From the NCBI GenBank assembly GCA_943327755.2, contig CALPYF020000013.1:15998-79997 (forward strand): DNA of 64,000 nucleotides, given 5' to 3'. The first letter of the stretch is position 1; each line of letters starts with the position of its first letter. Below are positions 26,982 to 35,164 of this stretch, in pieces. Both the position numbers and the translations under genes were made by a program. The notes beneath the pieces are model-generated. The model worked only from the letters and a program-made list of their open reading frames with translations. It did not search any database and had not been told where the DNA came from. Source of the stretch: Deinococcus hopiensis KR-140 (GTDB lineage: Bacteria > Deinococcota > Deinococci > Deinococcales > Deinococcaceae).

Positions 26982-27716
26982 ATGTTGTATTTCGCGAGCA
27001 CGAGCAGTGACTTGGACGACCTGGACGCCCACCCGGACATTGGGGTGATGACCGGACCGCGCGTGGGTGGACTGGGCAGCATACTGACGTCCCAGCGCCC
27101 CTGGGCGTCGGACTGCGACGCCCTGAGCAAGCACGGCTTCCACTATGACGAGTTCGTCGAGCACCTGCGGCGCGTGCACGACCCGGAGTTGATCGCCCGC
27201 TGCCAGTTCGTGGTGGTCCCCGATGTCCCCGGTTGCGGACGCAGCACCCTCGCGGCATTCCACGCGGCCGCGCCGGAACTCGCCGAACTGGGGTTCCCCC
27301 TCGCGTACTGCCTGCAAGACGGTGCAGAGGAACTGGAGTTGCCGCCCTGCGACGTGGCCTTCCTGGGCGGCAGTGACCCCTGGCGGGAGGCGGTTGGCGC
27401 CGCGCTCCTGGAACGGGCGGCCGCTGAATGCCTGCGAACCCACGTGGGCCGCGTGAACAGCGCGCGGCGCGTCCGGCACCTGAGTTTCTGCCATTGCGAC
27501 AGCGTGGACGGCACGTACGTGGGCTTCCGAGGCGTGGAGCGGGGCGCGCGGGAGATCGGGTCGTGGCTGCGGGGCGCGGCGGATGAGAAGCTGCTGGGCG
27601 CGGCGGACCTGCGGGCCATGACGCTGGACCCGGCGCGCGTGGCGCGCTGGCGGGAGCGGCGTCGCCCCGCCCCGCGGTGGGGCGAGATGCAGCCCGGCAC
27701 TGAGCGGCTGTTCTGA
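26982..27716 (+). CDS. TGT/DpdA-like TIM-barrel protein (244 aa)
   Basis: WASDCD, VVPDVPG, CLQDG, FLGGS, HVGRVNS and DSVDGT resemble the motif series of phage/plasmid transglycosylase-like proteins. Degenerate hairpin upstream. Confidence 0.55.
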   Translation: MLYFASTSSDLDDLDAHPDIGVMTGPRVGGLGSILTSQRPWASDCDALSKHGFHYDEFVEHLRRVHDPELIARCQFVVVPDVPGCGRSTLAAFHAAAPELAELGFPLAYCLQDGAEELELPPCDVAFLGGSDPWREAVGAALLERAAAECLRTHVGRVNSARRVRHLSFCHCDSVDGTYVGFRGVERGAREIGSWLRGAADEKLLGAADLRAMTLDPARVARWRERRRPAPRWGEMQPGTERLF

Positions 27717-27733
27717 GGCATGCACGGGGCACC

Positions 27734-27762
27734 TTGTAAAAAGTGTTCAACATTTGTACCTT
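27734..27762 (+). promoter_or_regulatory. sigmaA-type promoter for a leaderless parA transcript
   Basis: TTGTAA (27734)-N17-TACCTT (27757-27762), with GTG at 27769; the -10 box sits at -12..-7. Confidence 0.7.
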
Positions 27763-27768
27763 ACTCTC

Positions 27769-28776
27769 GTGCCCCGAAAGAAGCGGACCCCAGATCAGCG
27801 ACCGGAGGGCGTGGTGCTCACCTCTCAGCTCCGCCAGCAACTGCCCGCCGTCCTGAGCGCGGTGCAGCGTGGGCAGGAGTTCACCCTGAGGCACTACGCC
27901 ACCGACGTGGCCCGCATCGTTCCCCTCACGACCGTACCCAAGGAGACCCCCATGCGCCCCACCATGACTGTCCTCGCCACCTACAACCAGGCTGGCGGCA
28001 GCGGCAAGACCAGCCTCACCCGCGACCTGGGCTACGCACTCGCCACTCGCGGTCACCGGGTTCTCCTCATTGACGCAGACCCCCAGGCCAGCCTCACGCG
28101 GTGGCTCGGCCTCTTCCAAACCCCTGAAGACGGCTCGGTCCCTGCAGCCCTGAGCGTCCAGGCCACCATCCGCCAGGTGCTCGACGAGACCGCCGACACC
28201 CTCCCTCAACCGATCCCAGCCTTCGACATGGACGTCATCCCCTCGAACCGCCACCTCAAAGGCGCCGAACTCTACCTGAGTGGACAGCTCCCCGAAGAAC
28301 AGGGCCGACTGCGCCGCGCCATTCAAGCCCTCAGTGACCGCTACGACTACGTCCTGATTGACACACCCCCCGCGGACAACGCTCTCGTCCTGGCCTGCAT
28401 TGCCGCAAGCGATCTGATGATCATGCCTGTCACCGGCTCAAAGGGCCTGGACAACATCGACAACGTCAGCCGGGTCATTCGGCAGGCCCGTGCCATCAAC
28501 CCGGGCCTGAACTTCGGTCTGTTCGTCGTCACTGGCTACAACAAAAATCTTCTCCACGACGCCGAGGTATACGACGCCCTGACGCAGGTGTATGCCGATC
28601 TCGGCCCCACCGCGCCGCCCATCGCCTTCCGCCCCGGCATCTACAAGGATGCGCCCAACGCGATGCAGCCCGTCGCGGTGTACCGACCCAAGAGTCCGGC
28701 CGTGCAGGAGATCGATGCCGTCACGGACGCGGTCGTGCATGCTGCCGCCCGCCAAGCTCAGCTGGTGGCCCCATGA
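27769..28776 (+). CDS. parA: ParA partition ATPase with an N-terminal Phd/YefM-like extension (335 aa; internal SD-led start at 27952)
   Basis: Deviant Walker A NQAGGSGKT, LIDADPQASLT, YDYVLIDTPP. N-terminal SQLRQQLPAVLSAVQRGQEFTLRHYATDVARIVP. Confidence 0.9.
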   Translation: MPRKKRTPDQRPEGVVLTSQLRQQLPAVLSAVQRGQEFTLRHYATDVARIVPLTTVPKETPMRPTMTVLATYNQAGGSGKTSLTRDLGYALATRGHRVLLIDADPQASLTRWLGLFQTPEDGSVPAALSVQATIRQVLDETADTLPQPIPAFDMDVIPSNRHLKGAELYLSGQLPEEQGRLRRAIQALSDRYDYVLIDTPPADNALVLACIAASDLMIMPVTGSKGLDNIDNVSRVIRQARAINPGLNFGLFVVTGYNKNLLHDAEVYDALTQVYADLGPTAPPIAFRPGIYKDAPNAMQPVAVYRPKSPAVQEIDAVTDAVVHAAARQAQLVAP

Positions 28777-29723
28777 GTGGTCGGCGTGGCCGGCCAGGTG
28801 GTCTCTCCCTGCACGACCAGCAGATCCGTGCGCAGGCGTCAAACGACGAACTGAATCAGGTGGTGAAGGCAGCGTACGCCTCAGGCGTGCACGAGATCCC
28901 GCTGAGCGAGATCGACATCACGGGCGACTGGAACCCTCGAGGCAGCCTTGGGAATGACCCATACGGCGAGGCGGATCTCGCAGGCCTGATGGCGGCCATC
29001 CAGGAATACGGCCAACTACAACCAGTCCTACTGCGCCCCCACCCTGACCGCACTGGTCCCTACCGCTACCAACTGGTCGCTGGGTGGCGGCGGTACCACA
29101 GCCGCCGTCTACTCGGTGACACCGTCGTCCTTGCGAGCGTCTACAGCTTCCGGGATGATCAGCTTGACGCGCTGTCCACGTTGGAGAACACGCAGCGTGA
29201 GGAACTCGATCAGTTCGAGGTGGTGCGCGGTGTGTTCCGGACGCTCGCCGCCCAACTGAATGTCGAAATGGATGCCCTCCCTGGCTTGATGAGCCGCGTC
29301 CTGAAGACGGGCGAGGATCCCCACGACCTGCAGGACAAACTTAAAGTCCTCACCAGTGCCAGTCTCTCTACCTTCAACACCAAGTACGCCCGCGTGCTGC
29401 GGTTGCGCCCGGCAGAGATTCGTGCGGTGTACGGCCGGACGGTGGCGCCCACTGTCGCGCTGGAACTTGTGCGGCTGGGCGAGCGCCCGGAGCGAGCCAC
29501 TCTCCTTCAGCAGGCCGTCGACGGCGCCTGGACCACCCGAACCGCGAAAGACCGTGTGAACGAAGTCCTCAAGGGCACACAGGAACGCCCTGAGGTCTAT
29601 GACGCTGCTCTCCGAGTCACCCGGCACCTGAAACCCGCTCGACTCGATGCCCTCACCACCGAACAGCAGGCTCACGTGCATAACCTGCTTCGCCAGCTTG
29701 AGGAGGCGTTTGCGCCATCCTGA
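28773..29723 (+). CDS. parB: ParB partition protein (316 aa)
   Basis: WNPR, GQLQPVLLRP, YQLVAGWRRY, ENTQREEL. ATGA overlap with parA. Confidence 0.9.
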   Translation: MSGRRGRPGGLSLHDQQIRAQASNDELNQVVKAAYASGVHEIPLSEIDITGDWNPRGSLGNDPYGEADLAGLMAAIQEYGQLQPVLLRPHPDRTGPYRYQLVAGWRRYHSRRLLGDTVVLASVYSFRDDQLDALSTLENTQREELDQFEVVRGVFRTLAAQLNVEMDALPGLMSRVLKTGEDPHDLQDKLKVLTSASLSTFNTKYARVLRLRPAEIRAVYGRTVAPTVALELVRLGERPERATLLQQAVDGAWTTRTAKDRVNEVLKGTQERPEVYDAALRVTRHLKPARLDALTTEQQAHVHNLLRQLEEAFAPS

Positions 29724-29804
29724 GCCAGGCCTTGCCGGGACGAACAAGAGGAGGCGATATCGCCTCCTCTCAAGCTATTCGCCTTTTCCAGTTCGCTCTT
29801 GCAT

Positions 29805-29894
29805 CCCGGGGTTGATGCGCGTCAACCCAGCTCCACACCCGGGGTTGATGCGCGTCAACCCAGCTCCACACCCGGGGTTGATGCGCGTCAACCC
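29805..29894. repeat. three tandem 33-bp repeats with a palindromic core, candidate parS
   Basis: CCCGGGGTTGATGCGCGTCAACCC(AGCTCCACA) at 29805, 29838 and 29871, 81 bp after parB. Confidence 0.85.
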
Positions 29895-29945
29895 TGTTGT
29901 AAGGAAGCTATGGCCCGTGACCAGGTCACGGGCCCAGTCGGGCAC

Positions 29946-32900
29946 ATGTCACTGATCAGCCTGTTCGATGCCGTGAAGCCCGCAGCCCAGCCTGCCCGCA
30001 AGGCCAGCCAGGGCAAGGTCAAGAGCAAGGGCGCCGCACACCCCACTCAGGCCGCCCCCGCTGTGATCACAGTGGATCCAGCCCTCGACGCATTCCGGAT
30101 GCGCTCCGCGCCGACGTACGCTCCCGCCTCCAGCGCCGAACCCTACGGCGTAGAGGCTCTGCCCATCGTCAGCACGGACGCTCGCCTGAAGGCCAACCAG
30201 GCCGTCCGCGACATCCTCGCCCGCGGCGTCACCCCCGCCGACCACGCCGCCCTGCGCGCCTGGAGTGGTGAAGGCGGCCTCGGCGAGCACAGCGCCAGCA
30301 CCAGCGCCTTCTACACCCCCGGCGAACTCGTGCAGGTCGCGTACGACCTCAGCCAGGCGCTCGGCAGCACCCGCCGCATCCTCGAATTCAGCTGCGGTGG
30401 CGGCGCCTTCCTCGCGCGCGCACCCAAGTTCAGTGACGTGGTCGGCGTGGAACTCGACGAGACCAGCGCCGCCGTCGCGCAGGCTCTGCACCCTCACGTG
30501 ACCGTCTGGAACGCCTCCTTTGAGACGTACACCACGCAGAGCGAGGACGCCCCGTTCGATCTCGTGATCGGCAACCCGCCCTTCGGCACACGCGGCGCCC
30601 AGGCGAGATTGCACCGCCCCGACCTCCGGCAGGCGCACTGGTACTTCGTCCTCGAAGGCCTGCGCCGCGTCACCCCCGGCGGCCTGATGACCGTCGTCGT
30701 GCCCGAGAGCATGCTCCGCGTGGACAGCGACCGCCCGCACCGCGAGGCGCTGATCGACCTCGCGCACCCCCTGATGCTGTCCGCCGTGCCCGAAGGGGCC
30801 TTCCGGGCGGCCGGGGCGGGCGTCACCACCGTCCTGCTGGTCCTGCGCCGCCACGATGCCAGCGTGACCGAAGCGCTGGCCGCCCTCACCCACGAGGAGC
30901 AGGCCCAGCTGCGCGAGCAGCGCCTGACGCACAGCGGGTACCTCCGCCAGATCGTGAACGGGGAAGGCGTCTTCTACCGCAGCGGGACCGAGTGGAAGCT
31001 CCAGTACGCCGGGGAACCCCTCGGCACGCCCCGCCACCAGGCCAAGATCGGGGACGGCCGCTTCGGCGACCCCGTGTACCCCGGTGGACTGCGCGTGGAC
31101 CTGGCGACCCTCACCAAGCAGGCCAGTGCGCGCGTGAACGACATCCTGACGCTGCCCGGCGCGCTCGCGGCCATCCAGACCCTGTTCGGCTCGAAGCCCG
31201 TGCCCGGCAGGCCCGCCCCCAGGCGCACCCCATCACGGACGGAGAGACCAGTGCGTGCGGCACGTACCGCTTCCAGGGCGGCCACTGGCAGTACGGCTCG
31301 CACCTGAGCAACCCCGCCGTACTCAGCGCCCTGACCGTCGCCCAGGCCATCACGGCGGCCCGCACTGGCCGGCAGCACGCCGCACGCGACACGGCCCTGC
31401 GCCTGCACGACACCCACCTGAGCACGCACGGCGCGTACGACCTGACCCTGCTGCGCCGCGCTGCAAAATCCGCGCCCGCCCTGCACGCGCTCGTCGAAGC
31501 GAACGGGGACGTCCCGGCGCTCCTGACCGAACTCACCGACCGGGAACCCCCCATCACGCCCGGCACGGTGGGCGAGGTCGCCCACCAGCTCGAAGCGTAC
31601 GGCCTGCTCACCATCACGAGCCTCGCCCAGTACGCTCAGGTCACGGATGGGGACGCCGCCGCGCACCTGCTCGCCCAGTACGCCTTCACCGGGCACACGT
31701 GGGAGGCCGCCAGCACGTACTACCGGGGCCGCGCGCACGAGAAGGCCCGCCTCGCCGAGACCCTGGCCGCCGATCACACCGGCACCGAGCGCCAGGCCCT
31801 CCTGCAACAGGCGCAGACCTGCCGCGAACGCGCCCTCTGGGTGGACATCACCGACATGACCCTCGAGGCGCGGGACCCACTGATCCCCGAGCACGTCCTG
31901 GCCGACTGGGTGAACGCCAACCTCGGGACCTGCGTGGCCGTCAAGCGCAACTCGTGGGACGCCGACGGTGCGCCCGTGAACCTAATCCAGGCGGTCCGCG
32001 GTGAGCACGGTGTCACCCTGCGCCTGCGCAACGCCCTGGATGACGAGCTCGCCCTGAAGGAGCGGCAGGCCATCAGTCCTGGGCGCGTGCGGGAACTGGA
32101 GGCGTACCTGAACTTCCGCACGCCGGTTGAACCGGTCGTGAACCAGGACGTGAAGACGCCCGAGCAGATCACCGCCGAACGCCACGCGCATCAGGCCCGC
32201 GCGGTACAGTTCGAACGGCAGCTCGCCGCGCACTTCCGCACGTGGCTGCTCGGCAGTGAGCACGTGGGCACGGTGGAACTCACCCTGAACGAGCACCGGT
32301 ACGGCCTGCTGACCGCCACGCCCGACCTGCGCCCCCTGACGCTCCCCCGGTACCAGGGGCCGCTCGCGCATCCCTTCCAGGCCGGACACGTCCGCGCCGC
32401 CGCGCGTATGGACGGCGTCATCCTGGACTTTTCAGTTGGGCTTGGGAAGACTTTGACCGCGCTGATGCTGGCTGAACTGCTTCTCCAGTCTGGCCGCGCC
32501 CGCCTGCCCGCGGTGGTCGTGCCGCTCTCCCGCCTGGGGGACTGGGTCATGAACGCCGCCACGGCCCTCCCGGGGTTGCGGATCAGCGTGATCGGCGGGG
32601 AACCCGTCCGTGCGCCGGACGGCAGCGTCGCGCTGGACGAGGACGGCGAACCCAGGGTCCTGACGGACACCGGGGACCGCCGCCGCGCGAAGATCGCCGC
32701 GCTCCTGACCAGTCCCCCGGATCTCGTGATCTTCACGTACGAGGCGTTCGAGATGACCCCCATGCTCGAAGAGACCCGCAAGAAGTACGTGCAGAGCGAC
32801 GAGACCCTCATGAGCGCGCTGGCCACCACGACCACGTTCGACGAGCGGCACCGGAAGATGGGCGGGCACCGCGCGCTCGCGGCCGGGGAGAAGTTCACGC

Positions 32901-35164
32901 AGCGGCACCTGGGGCGCGTCAAGGTCGCCACGAGCACCGACGTGCCCTTCGAAGCGCTCGGCATCGACGCGGTCCTGTGGGACGAGGCGCACGCGCTGAA
33001 GAACACGTACGCCGCGCCCGCCGTGTACGGGGACTCCAGCCCGAAATTCCTAGGTGGGGGAGGGGAGAGTAACCGCGCGCTGGACGGCAACCATAAGGCC
33101 CGCTTCATCCGCGAGCGTGGCGGCTGCACGGTTGCCCTGAGCGCCACGTGGTTCACGAACAGCCCTCTGGAGATCTGGAACATGCTCTCCCTCGTAACCG
33201 ACGCGCTGCCCGCGTACGGCATCACGAATGTGCAGGCCTTCACCGCCCGCTTCTGCGTGATCGAACCCCGCCTGATCACCCTCCCGGAAGGGGACGTGGA
33301 GTTCCACTCGTGCGTCGTGGGCTTCCGGAACCTGGACGAGCTGCGCGCCATCATCGGCCAGCACGTCATCCGGGAGACGGAGGACACCTGCCAGATGCAC
33401 GACCGCGTGGGGATGCCCCTGCCGCCCCTGACCACTGTCGAGCACCTGTTCGACCTGCACCCGGTCGTGCAGGACGAATACGACGCGGAGCAGGCCACCA
33501 TCAGCGAGGCTGAGAGTGACGGGGAGAAGCACCTGTTCTCGATCTTCTCCCGCCTGAGCAAGCTCACCCTGCACCCCCCGCTGATGAACGTCCAGGCCCC
33601 GAATGCCCGTTTCGCGGCGTGTGTCGAGGCCTGCCTGGCAGCCCGTGCCCAGGGTGGCCGGAATGTCGTGTTCATGTACACCGGCGGCGAAGGCGGCATG
33701 ACGTACACGGCCCTGCGCGACCAGCTCATCGCGGCCGGGTACCCCGCCGGTGAAATCGAGATCATCACCGCGAGCACGCACCAGGGTGGGGAACGCCTGA
33801 CGGTCGAACGCCGGTTCCGCCGTGGCGTCCTGACCTGCGTCATCGGCAGCAGCGTGATCGAACAGGGCGGCAATTACCAGGGTGCCACCGACCTCCACCA
33901 CCTCGATTACCCGCACCACCACATGGCGTTCGTGCAGCGCATCGGACGCGGCCGCCGTCAGGGCACCTGGGTGAAGGAAATCCGCAACCACGTGTACTTC
34001 GCCCGGGGCAGCTTCGACGTCATCCGCTTCCAGAACATGATGGGCAAGAAAGGCTGGGCGCAGCAGGTGTTCGACCCCACCCTCACCAGCTGCGAGAACA
34101 CCGACGTGGGCTTCGACGGCGAGGAACTGGCCGTCATGCTCAGCCGCGACCCGGACGCCACCCGCCACGCCATCCGCGCCAAGCGGGAGGCCCGGCAGGC
34201 GGAGAGTCACGCCGCGAGCCTGCTGGCAGACCTCACGGTCATCCGCGAGTACCTCGAAGCGCTCAGCCTGCTGGAGAAGCGCGACCGGACCGCCCGCAGC
34301 CGCGAGCACGGCCCGAGCACGCAGGACGTCGCCGGGATCAATCGCCTGGTGACCGCCCTGCGTGGCCTGCACGGTCAGGTACAGGCCCTGCGCGCCGCGG
34401 CGAACCCCATGGCTGCCCTCACCCGCCTTCAGCAGCCGATCCTGTGGGTGGAGGGCCTGCCCATCCACGCTGGGCTGACGTTCGAGCACCAGGGCAACCC
34501 CGTGACCGTCCGGGACCTGCGCGGCGCAGACACGGGCATCCGGGTCACGGACGTGGGTGGGAACGTGGACGTCATCGCGCACGTGGACCTTGCCAGGGCC
34601 CGGCACGTGCAGCCCACCCGCACGGAAGGCGCGTACGGTGCGGAAGGCCTCACCCGCCTACGCGCCGAACTTCAGGAGCGCATCCTGAGCGCTGAAGTCG
34701 CGCCCCAGACACCGGCTCAGCCTGCGGTCCCCATCCAGCTCGCCCCGGTGACGGAGATCCAGTCTGTTCCAACGCAGGACGCAGCTCCGGTGCAGCAGAC
34801 CCAGGCGGGCCCGCTGGTCGCGGCAGCAGACCCGGTGGTGGAGACCACGCCCACCCCGCGCCCCGCACCCGCCGTCCACACCGTCCAGCGCCCCCCGCTG
34901 CGCCTCCGGTACGGGCTCACCGTGACCGAGCAGCTCCCCGCCCGCCCCGCGCAGGTGTACGCCATCCAGGGCGACACCCTCACGCCCGGCGCGTTGGACG
35001 GCTGCCCGCTCGTGATCGTCGAGTACCGCGCCGAGCGGGACGTACGGATGGTCACGCTGGTGTTCCCGGACCCCACCCGCGCGGCGCAGACCCGCACGCT
35101 CCTCCGGCAACAGGACCCCCGAGTCCGCGCCCGGATGGATCAGCTGCTGCTCGCGGCCATCTGA
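29946..35164 (+). pseudogene. DarB-like N6-adenine methyltransferase plus SNF2 helicase, split by a single frameshift near 31190
   Basis: 5' frame carries LEFSCGGG and NPPF; 3' frame carries DFSVGLGKT, WDEAH, SATWFTNS and QRIGRGRR. The coding frame switches at TTCGGCTCGAAGCC (LFG|LEARARQA). May be a sequencing error. Hairpin-led at 29946. Confidence 0.8.

Follow-up and report, generated by a model that had tools for sequence, protein, structure and literature searches.

A ParA protein with a Phd/YefM-like N-terminal domain and a conserved internal start signal in a Deinococcus plasmid partition cassette

We analyzed a parA gene and its surroundings in a stretch of 64,000 nucleotides from Deinococcus hopiensis KR-140 (assembly GCA_943327755.2; hereafter the window), which sits on a 101-kb contig of its assembly. 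The locus is a plasmid-borne parA-parB-parS partition cassette. It shows the two features by which ParABS systems are recognized in sequence, a parB gene adjoining parA and repeated centromere-like sites (candidate parS), and it is 98.7% identical to plasmid pDEGR-2 of Deinococcus grandis ATCC 43672, a 374-kb circular record that represents a complete plasmid sequence. The ParA protein consists, in its long form, of a Phd-like N-terminal domain, a linker and an ATPase core, and the flexible linker contains an in-frame ATG preceded by a Shine-Dalgarno (SD) sequence. Taking the evidence together, we consider it fairly probable that this cassette encodes a ParA in which the ATPase core is joined to a Phd-like repressor domain and that the SD-ATG pair in the linker allows two forms of the protein to be made. 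The coordinates of all features are collected in Table 1.

Three further species of the genus have, in their representative genomes (G030, G071 and G076), a ParA with 99% identity, and one with 89% identity was found in genome G058. These near-identical parA copies suggest that the species have the plasmid, or its par region, in common.

The Phd-like domain and its fusion to ParA

In a preliminary description, made from the sequence of this locus alone, a Phd DNA-binding pattern had been recognized in the first 61 residues of ParA. The peptide on which this was based, SQLRQQLPAVLSAVQRGQEFTLRHYATDVARIVP, is found in the translated frame. A scan of residues 1-61 with Pfam and NCBIfam models gave a sub-threshold Phd match only; against PF02604, the window sequence alone reached E=0.2 and 11.9 bits, which is below the Pfam gathering score (cut-off 29.8). 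Instead of such single-sequence scans, family profiles were used for this domain. When the N-domain region alone was used for a word-based search, two near-identical proteins were returned and no more. The family alignment was built from the N-domains of 16 sequences, taken from full-length homologues with 35-70% identity, several of which carry precomputed PF02604 matches. PF02604 was matched by 10 of the 16 homologous N-domains (best value 1.6e-10). Compared with solved Phd-fold antitoxins, the family profile reached values from 2e-8 to 4e-4, with 3dbo_A (deposited as an uncharacterized protein, 2e-8), VapB46 (9e-7), RelB (4e-5) and P1 Phd (3e-4) as top structures. The hhalign comparison of the window N-domain with a profile built from the Pfam-positive members only gave E=5.5e-6.

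The predicted structure points in the same direction. The AlphaFold model of the 335 amino acid protein has a mean predicted local distance difference test score (pLDDT) of 88. Residues 13-50 form a strand-helix-strand-strand arrangement with pLDDT values of 81-91, followed by a low-confidence linker to the ATPase. A Foldseek search with the isolated domain returned among the top 45 matches almost exclusively N-terminal domains of VapB46, Phd, YefM, RelB and similar antitoxins (root mean square deviation (rmsd) 0.7-2.3 A, probability 0.5-1.0). The E-values of about 1e-2 are modest because the domain is short. Homology to the N-terminal DNA-binding and dimerization domain of Phd/YefM, with the same predicted fold, is therefore convincing only through the family: the earlier proposal was borne out by the family profile, the profile-profile comparison and the model, and the single sequence stays below the Pfam threshold.

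In the 16-sequence alignment, R22 at the start of helix 1 is the sole invariant residue of the domain. Nucleotide differences fall mostly on third codon positions (15/4/28 for the three positions against locus L081 and 12/8/23 against L095, the two closest relatives), and therefore this stretch appears to be translated and under purifying selection. The protein contains the DNA-binding and dimerization half of an antitoxin alone. In place of the toxin-binding tail follow the linker and ParA. No toxin gene of the Doc, YoeB or RelE type is located downstream, the next gene being parB in every locus read.

If the fusion were a sequencing error, a stop codon between the two domains would be expected in relatives. 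A six-frame search of 125 Deinococcaceae genomes revealed about 27 places in about 24 genomes with a match starting at residue 21 or earlier, and no stop between the domains was found in 26 of the 27 places reaching the N-domain. The fusion is thus present in about a fifth of the Deinococcaceae genomes. In an exhaustive profile search, the match extended over both N-domain and ATPase for at least 29 representatives of 50%-identity clusters, and the fused family is found in dozens of loci from both isolates and metagenomes. In a tree of the ATPase core, every Phd-fused protein belongs to one clade with 99% support. The same clade holds true short derivatives (L096, L097 and L002) which have lost the Phd part and begin where the fused genes have their internal start. 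One apparently short homologue with 64% identity (P0003) owes its length to a gene call at the internal ATG; its upstream frame is open and encodes a Phd-like domain. Among 80 genomic loci searched, no unfused Phd gene was found upstream of short ParAs, and therefore a recent fusion of an adjacent gene pair is unsupported in that sample. Judged from these comparisons, the Phd-ParA fusion is genuine, old and common. A literature search returned no description of such a fusion, which is not proof of absence.

The genome of strain KR-140 contains a second partition system of this kind (contig C7:68155-69132; locus L090:1333-2499). Its ParA of 388 amino acids is preceded by two tandem Phd-like domains. 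The system has its own promoter palindrome GGTAAAcCtTTTACC, a linker with CAGGAG-N6-ATG and repeated TAGGTCACnGTGACCTA palindromes after parB. The tandem Phd-Phd-ParA arrangement arose at least two times (L086; L087/L090/L102/L108). Speculatively, such proteins may be single-chain pseudo-dimers, which would free the ATP-driven monomer-dimer cycle of ParA from the constitutive dimerization imposed by a single Phd domain. Other N-terminal domains occur in the same lysine-relocated ParA family, namely XRE-type helix-turn-helix (HTH) domains in L015, L022 and L054 and MerR/excisionase-like HTH domains in L053 and L061, with members from Rubrobacter, a Deinococcales metagenome-assembled genome and Calidithermus. 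Since these domains are located at the same place, the ParA core has recruited DNA-binding domains repeatedly, and its N-terminus seems to be a position to which repressor domains are recurrently attached.

Residues 66-335 form a ParA-type ATPase (Pfam AAA_31 1.1e-30, CbiA 5e-15). The P-loop, the Walker A' aspartate and Walker B are represented by the conserved motifs GGSGKT, IDADPQ and VLIDTPP, and Foldseek places the ATPase with Soj, ParA and McdA (TM-score up to 0.91, normalized to the target). As had been noted before, the signature lysine of the Walker A motif (KGGxxKT) is missing; the motif reads AGGSGKT. Alanine (89) or serine (18) occupies the position in 107 relatives, which were retrieved by a pattern requiring A or S there. 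In the solved structure of a McdA-like plasmid ParA from Cyanothece, the place of the signature lysine in the ATP sandwich dimer is taken by Lys151, which opens a later helix (PMC6582323). Lysine-relocated ParAs have been noted earlier on cyanobacterial plasmids (PMC7182216). K225 of the window protein aligns exactly with this Lys151 ('TGS-KGLDNI' against 'EAStKGVNSL'). It is located behind Walker B, at the N-terminus of helix 226-243 of the AlphaFold model, and the position is K in 107 of 107 relatives. This correspondence explains the missing Walker A lysine, and by analogy with McdA, K225 presumably takes over its role.

Promoter region, internal start and downstream genes

The preliminary description had placed a leaderless GTG start behind a consensus promoter. 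Both hexamers with their 17-nt spacing and the GTG at 27769 are present, but the term consensus does not hold, as the promoter agrees with sigma-70 at 7 of 12 positions. Promoter, palindrome and linker-start counts were obtained for 28 Phd-ParA loci. The layout TTGnnn-N16-19-TAnnn[T/C]-N4-10-ATG/GTG is found in frame in 23 of them. In D. deserti, 60% of the mRNAs are leaderless with a 5' AUG or GUG (PMC4007540), and leaderless genes of D. radiodurans carry a -10 element TANNNT about 6-7 bp before the open reading frame (PMC12340547). The window promoter (TACCTT, 6 nt, GTG) fits this Deinococcus pattern. GTG 27769 is invariant among close relatives and is probably a leaderless start of the long form.

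A different start is annotated in D. grandis pDEGR-2, at GTG 27814 behind a GGAGG. We rejected it as the main start: at this position relatives carry GTT or GTC/ATC, and the GGAGG falls in an insertion absent from relatives, so that neither codon nor SD sequence is conserved.

Many of the 16-19-nt promoter spacers hold palindromes, for example AAGTTTAAACTT, GGTTTAAACC, GTTCTGTACAGAAC, AGGTGTACACCT and ATGTTTtAAACAT. In 9 loci they are individually unlikely (the observed arm length was reached by at most 47 of 2000 shuffles), and a GTAC or TGTACA core is present in 9 loci. Such cores are known from operators, TGTACA in the YefM palindromes and GTAC in the Phd repeats (PMC1802561). In the window, a GTAC core is part of TTTGTAC (27753-27759) at the border of spacer and -10 hexamer. 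The window's own spacer palindrome was rejected as stand-alone evidence (419 of 2000 shuffles); relatives have stronger palindromes at the same place, and it is the family pattern alone that carries weight. The window spacer is identical to the L081 spacer at 16 of 17 positions, whereas both flanking hexamers differ, and the candidate operator (including TGTTCAACA) occurs as a single copy in the window. From the spacer palindromes, the GTAC cores and the conservation of the spacer we infer that the long form would bind the spacer through its Phd-like domain and block RNA polymerase. Within each system the promoter palindromes differ from the parS repeats, which calls for two DNA-binding specificities.

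In L086 (2880-2925) an operator-like sequence is present twice, as AAACCCGTACGACTTT upstream of the -35 hexamer and as AAACTCGTACGACTTT in the spacer. The arrangement is reminiscent of the YefM and Phd operators, whose palindromes are paired.

The SD-led internal ATG proposed earlier could be read in the sequence. Of the 28 loci, 25 have a linker with an in-frame ATG, which precedes the Walker A GG by 10-18 codons. GGAG is located 4-9 nt upstream of this ATG in 23 of the 25 loci and AAGGA in the other 2. As background, GGAG is so placed for 3.0% of 14,753 internal in-frame ATGs in the window's own genome. Depending on the clade, the pair lies 10, 14 or 18 codons before Walker A; the spacing of SD and ATG stays at 4-9 nt, and outside the pair, the linkers in the N-domain alignment differ freely in both length and sequence. 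A distance to the ATPase that shifts while the spacing is kept argues for selection on the pair itself and not for a frozen relic. The conserved pair suggests an internal ribosome site, from which the gene would make a short form in addition to the long one.

Table 1. Features of the parA-parB-parS locus, in coordinates of the window
Feature	Position	Strand	Remark
-35-like hexamer TTGTAA	27734..27739	+	kept as TTGnnn in relatives
17-nt promoter spacer AAAGTGTTCAACATTTG with palindrome TGTTcAACA (27744-27752)	27740..27756	+	candidate operator for the Phd-like domain
-10-like hexamer TACCTT (TAnnnT)	27757..27762	+	6 nt before GTG 27769; layout in 23 of 28 loci
parA long form, 335 amino acids: Phd-like domain, linker, ParA ATPase	27769..28776	+	GTG start, TGA 28774-28776
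Alternative start, GGAGG 27804-27808 and GTG 27814-27816	27804..27816	+	annotated start in D. grandis pDEGR-2, 320 amino acids
Phd/YefM-fold N-terminal domain (predicted), residues ~13-55, strand-helix-strand-strand	27805..27933	+	profiles, hhalign, AlphaFold/Foldseek
Internal Shine-Dalgarno AAGGAG, linker codons K58-E59	27940..27945	+	6 nt before ATG 27952
Internal in-frame ATG (M62), predicted start of short ParA, 274 amino acids	27952..27954	+	conserved
Second conserved ATG (M66)	27964..27966	+	
Walker A NQAGGSGKT	27985..28011	+	Ala in place of signature lysine
K225 codon AAG, surrogate signature lysine (putative role)	28441..28443	+	aligned with McdA Lys151
parB, 316 amino acids, ParB/Noc/KorB type	28773..29723	+	ATG overlaps parA stop (ATGA)
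Three 33-bp tandem repeats, each with 20-bp near-palindrome GGGTTGATGCGCGTCAACCC, candidate parS	29805..29903	+	80 bases after parB

The parB product matches ParB_N (1.5e-9) and, above the cut-off, TIGR00180. Its nearest solved relatives are Noc, Spo0J and KorB. The protein begins with MSGRRGRPGG (28773-28830) and thus has an arginine-rich N-terminus; in other systems an arginine-rich peptide of this kind stimulates the ParA ATPase. The GGGTTGATGCGCGTCAACCC repeats have no further copies in the window (0.02 expected by chance), and analogous repeated palindromes follow parB in L084, L087 and L090.

Downstream of the repeats, an N6-methylase/SNF2-helicase gene (29910-35164) is split near 31190 into the overlapping frames 29799..31307 and 30992..35164. 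The first frame, as listed, starts with a TTG inside the parS-like repeats, which are then read as three copies of PGVDARQPSST; the methylase gene itself probably begins at the ATG near 29910. Compared with D. grandis pDEGR-2, where the gene is a single open reading frame of 1739 amino acids, 7 nt (ACAGACG) are missing from the window. The split gene is either a frameshifted pseudogene or the result of an assembly error.

Proposed mechanism and alternative explanations

For the transcription start, the binding of the operator, the repression and the production and division of labor of the two forms, the sequences lead us to the following model. Transcription would start at or next to GTG 27769 and yield a leaderless mRNA, on which initiation at the 5' end gives the long form. 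The Phd-like domain of this form would dimerize, bind the palindrome between the -35 and -10 hexamers and repress the par operon, playing the part of the winged HTH in type Ia ParAs. Initiation at AAGGAG-N6-ATG on the same mRNA would give a ParA of 274 amino acids without the DNA-binding domain, supplying the pool of nucleoid-bound motor that works with ParB and parS. As an extension, which we regard as speculative and rather unlikely, the gene could be a two-output device. Leaderless 70S initiation at the 5' GUG would produce the repressor-ParA and SD-led initiation the motor-only ParA. The cell's balance of leaderless and canonical translation would then set how much repressor is made relative to motor, and with it par expression and plasmid segregation, e.g., after stress or irradiation in Deinococcus.

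Several points weigh against this two-form model. A subfamily with the Walker A motif FNHAGGAAKT (L112, L117, L118) has no SD-ATG pair in the linker, and the sister group fused to XRE-type HTH domains keeps the pair only sometimes; thus the pair is not kept automatically, and a short form need not be made. GAG, AAG and CAG are preferred codons anyway in this GC-rich genus, and the loci are related, so that the counts are not independent trials and overstate independence. The low agreement of the window promoter with the sigma-70 consensus has to be added, although that consensus is unsuited to leaderless promoters of Deinococcus, and a sigma-70 promoter and terminator scan of 27000-30200 reported nothing. 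The window palindrome is short (4+1+4 nt). With the SD-GTG at 27814, which is not conserved, a third form could arise. As a leaderless start codon, GUG performs poorly in E. coli and Haloferax, but Deinococcus does use it in this way (PMC4007540).

Some of these points would also fit a gene that makes the 335 amino acid form only, one protein both regulating and partitioning as in P1 ParA. The linker SD-ATG would then be a chance K/Q-E...M peptide, favored by codon usage, or a functionless leftover of an ancestral parA start, since joining an upstream gene to parA would leave the former ribosome site enclosed in the linker. The absence of the pair in the FNHAGGAAKT subfamily and its sporadic occurrence in the XRE group are in line with this. 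We nevertheless regard it as unlikely. The pair is kept in nearly all loci with a linker ATG, across three Walker A variants and at 35-40% protein identity, in a linker otherwise free to vary, and its constant internal spacing at changing distance from the ATPase core is set against the low genomic background. Less probable still is that the Phd-like domain is translated but acts other than as a promoter repressor, be it as a constitutive dimerization module, on another DNA site (e.g., a centromere-like one) or in the docking of a partner. Phd-fold domains are dimers, and the window palindrome is weak alone. The N-terminal extension of IncC1 provides a precedent, as it modulates oligomerization with no binding to specific sites (PMC2666795). 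On the other side, in many independent loci the palindromes fall precisely in the interval that separates -35 and -10, many of them with the GTAC core of Phd/YefM operators, the only invariant residue of the domain is the R22 at the start of helix 1, and the spacer is better conserved than the hexamers among close relatives, with a candidate operator that is unique in the window.

Two further explanations concern the nature of the N-terminal part itself. The choice of the internal ATG by the gene caller in P0003 and the sub-threshold Pfam match of the single sequence would suit a short ParA made from ATG 27952 only, behind an untranslated leader of 183 nt, or a fusion that is due to an assembly or sequencing error. 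To this we give very little credence, since isolates and metagenomes alike have an open frame and a domain conserved at the protein level, with substitutions mostly at third codon positions and a confidently predicted fold, and the 98.7% identical copy in a complete plasmid sequence speaks against an assembly error. A true type II antitoxin, neutralizing a toxin encoded nearby or elsewhere, is suggested by the NCBI name of the homologues P0005 and P0009 ('prevent-host-death family antitoxin'). It has hardly any probability in our view: of the Phd fold the N-terminal DNA-binding part alone (~13-55) is present, and behind it come a linker and an entire ParA, and parB with parS-like repeats behind it contradicts an arrangement with the toxin in cis.

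If the two-form model is true, it describes a third route of self-regulation for ParA systems, beside the winged HTH of type Ia and the separate repressor of type Ib, and a clear example of how the DNA-binding module of an antitoxin can be put to use outside toxin-antitoxin systems. It would also be the second dual-isoform ParA after RK2 IncC, independent of it and much more widespread, and the predicted activity of the extra domain could help to explain the use of two forms. The McdA-type relocated lysine extends to a large group of Deinococcota plasmid ParAs with ordinary ParB and parS partners. Annotation has been misled in this family: at least two homologues, P0005 and P0009, are named antitoxins, the D. 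grandis gene is started at a non-conserved GTG and some gene calls begin at the internal ATG. Such annotations mislead counts of both toxin-antitoxin and partition systems.

Comparison with known partition and antitoxin systems

Type Ia ParAs autoregulate through an N-terminal winged HTH, and Phd domains are dimeric repressors. As in P1 ParA and F SopA, ParA here carries an N-terminal DNA-binding domain (predicted) which would autoregulate the par operon, and the order is parA, parB, parS. The domain is different, a Phd/YefM strand-helix-strand-strand unit of about 45 residues compared with a winged HTH of about 100 residues. The core is likewise different, being of the small Soj/McdA type: P1 ParA (3ez2) shows 17% identity and an rmsd of about 14 A over the whole model, the SopA and RepA equivalog models stay far below their cut-offs, and the combination of winged HTH and core that defines type Ia is absent. 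The relocated signature lysine and the conserved internal start are further differences.

Type Ib systems (TP228 ParG, pSM19035 omega) resemble the present one in their small Soj-like ParA and in the control of par by a small dimeric fold common among antitoxins. Their repressor is a separate protein which also binds the centromere. Here, in contrast, ParA itself contains the predicted repressor domain, and a separately encoded ParB would act at a different site.

The McdA-like plasmid ParA of Cyanothece PCC 7424 (6NON/6NOP) and type 1 McdA likewise have a Walker A without signature lysine. Of the features of McdA-like ParAs, Ser/Thr/Ala at the signature position and the equivalent of Lys151 (K225) are present in the window protein, whereas the partner is not a small McdB-like protein but a ParB/Noc/KorB-type protein with parS-like palindromes. 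McdA, unlike the Phd-ParA, lacks both an N-terminal DNA-binding domain and a second start.

Phd of phage P1 and YefM share the N-terminal fold predicted here (rmsd 1.4-2.3 A). They are dimeric autorepressors which act on promoter-overlapping GTAC/TGTACA palindromes (PMC1802561), and palindromes of this kind are found in many Phd-ParA promoters. The window's own palindrome, TGTTcAACA, departs from them, with GTAC only at the border of spacer and -10 hexamer. In the Phd-ParA proteins the C-terminal toxin-neutralizing segment and the toxin gene are absent, and the domain is covalently joined to ParA.

An experimental precedent for a long and a short ParA, as predicted here from sequence, is provided by IncC1 and IncC2 of plasmid RK2 (IncP-1). 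They are made from one parA with two in-frame starts, and the short form is the ATPase core (PMC2666795). The extension of IncC1 alone neither dimerizes nor binds DNA, and the operon is controlled by KorA and KorB (PMC2666795). In the Phd-ParA, by contrast, the extension is a folded, predicted DNA-binding domain, and the long form would arise from a leaderless and the short form from an SD-led start.

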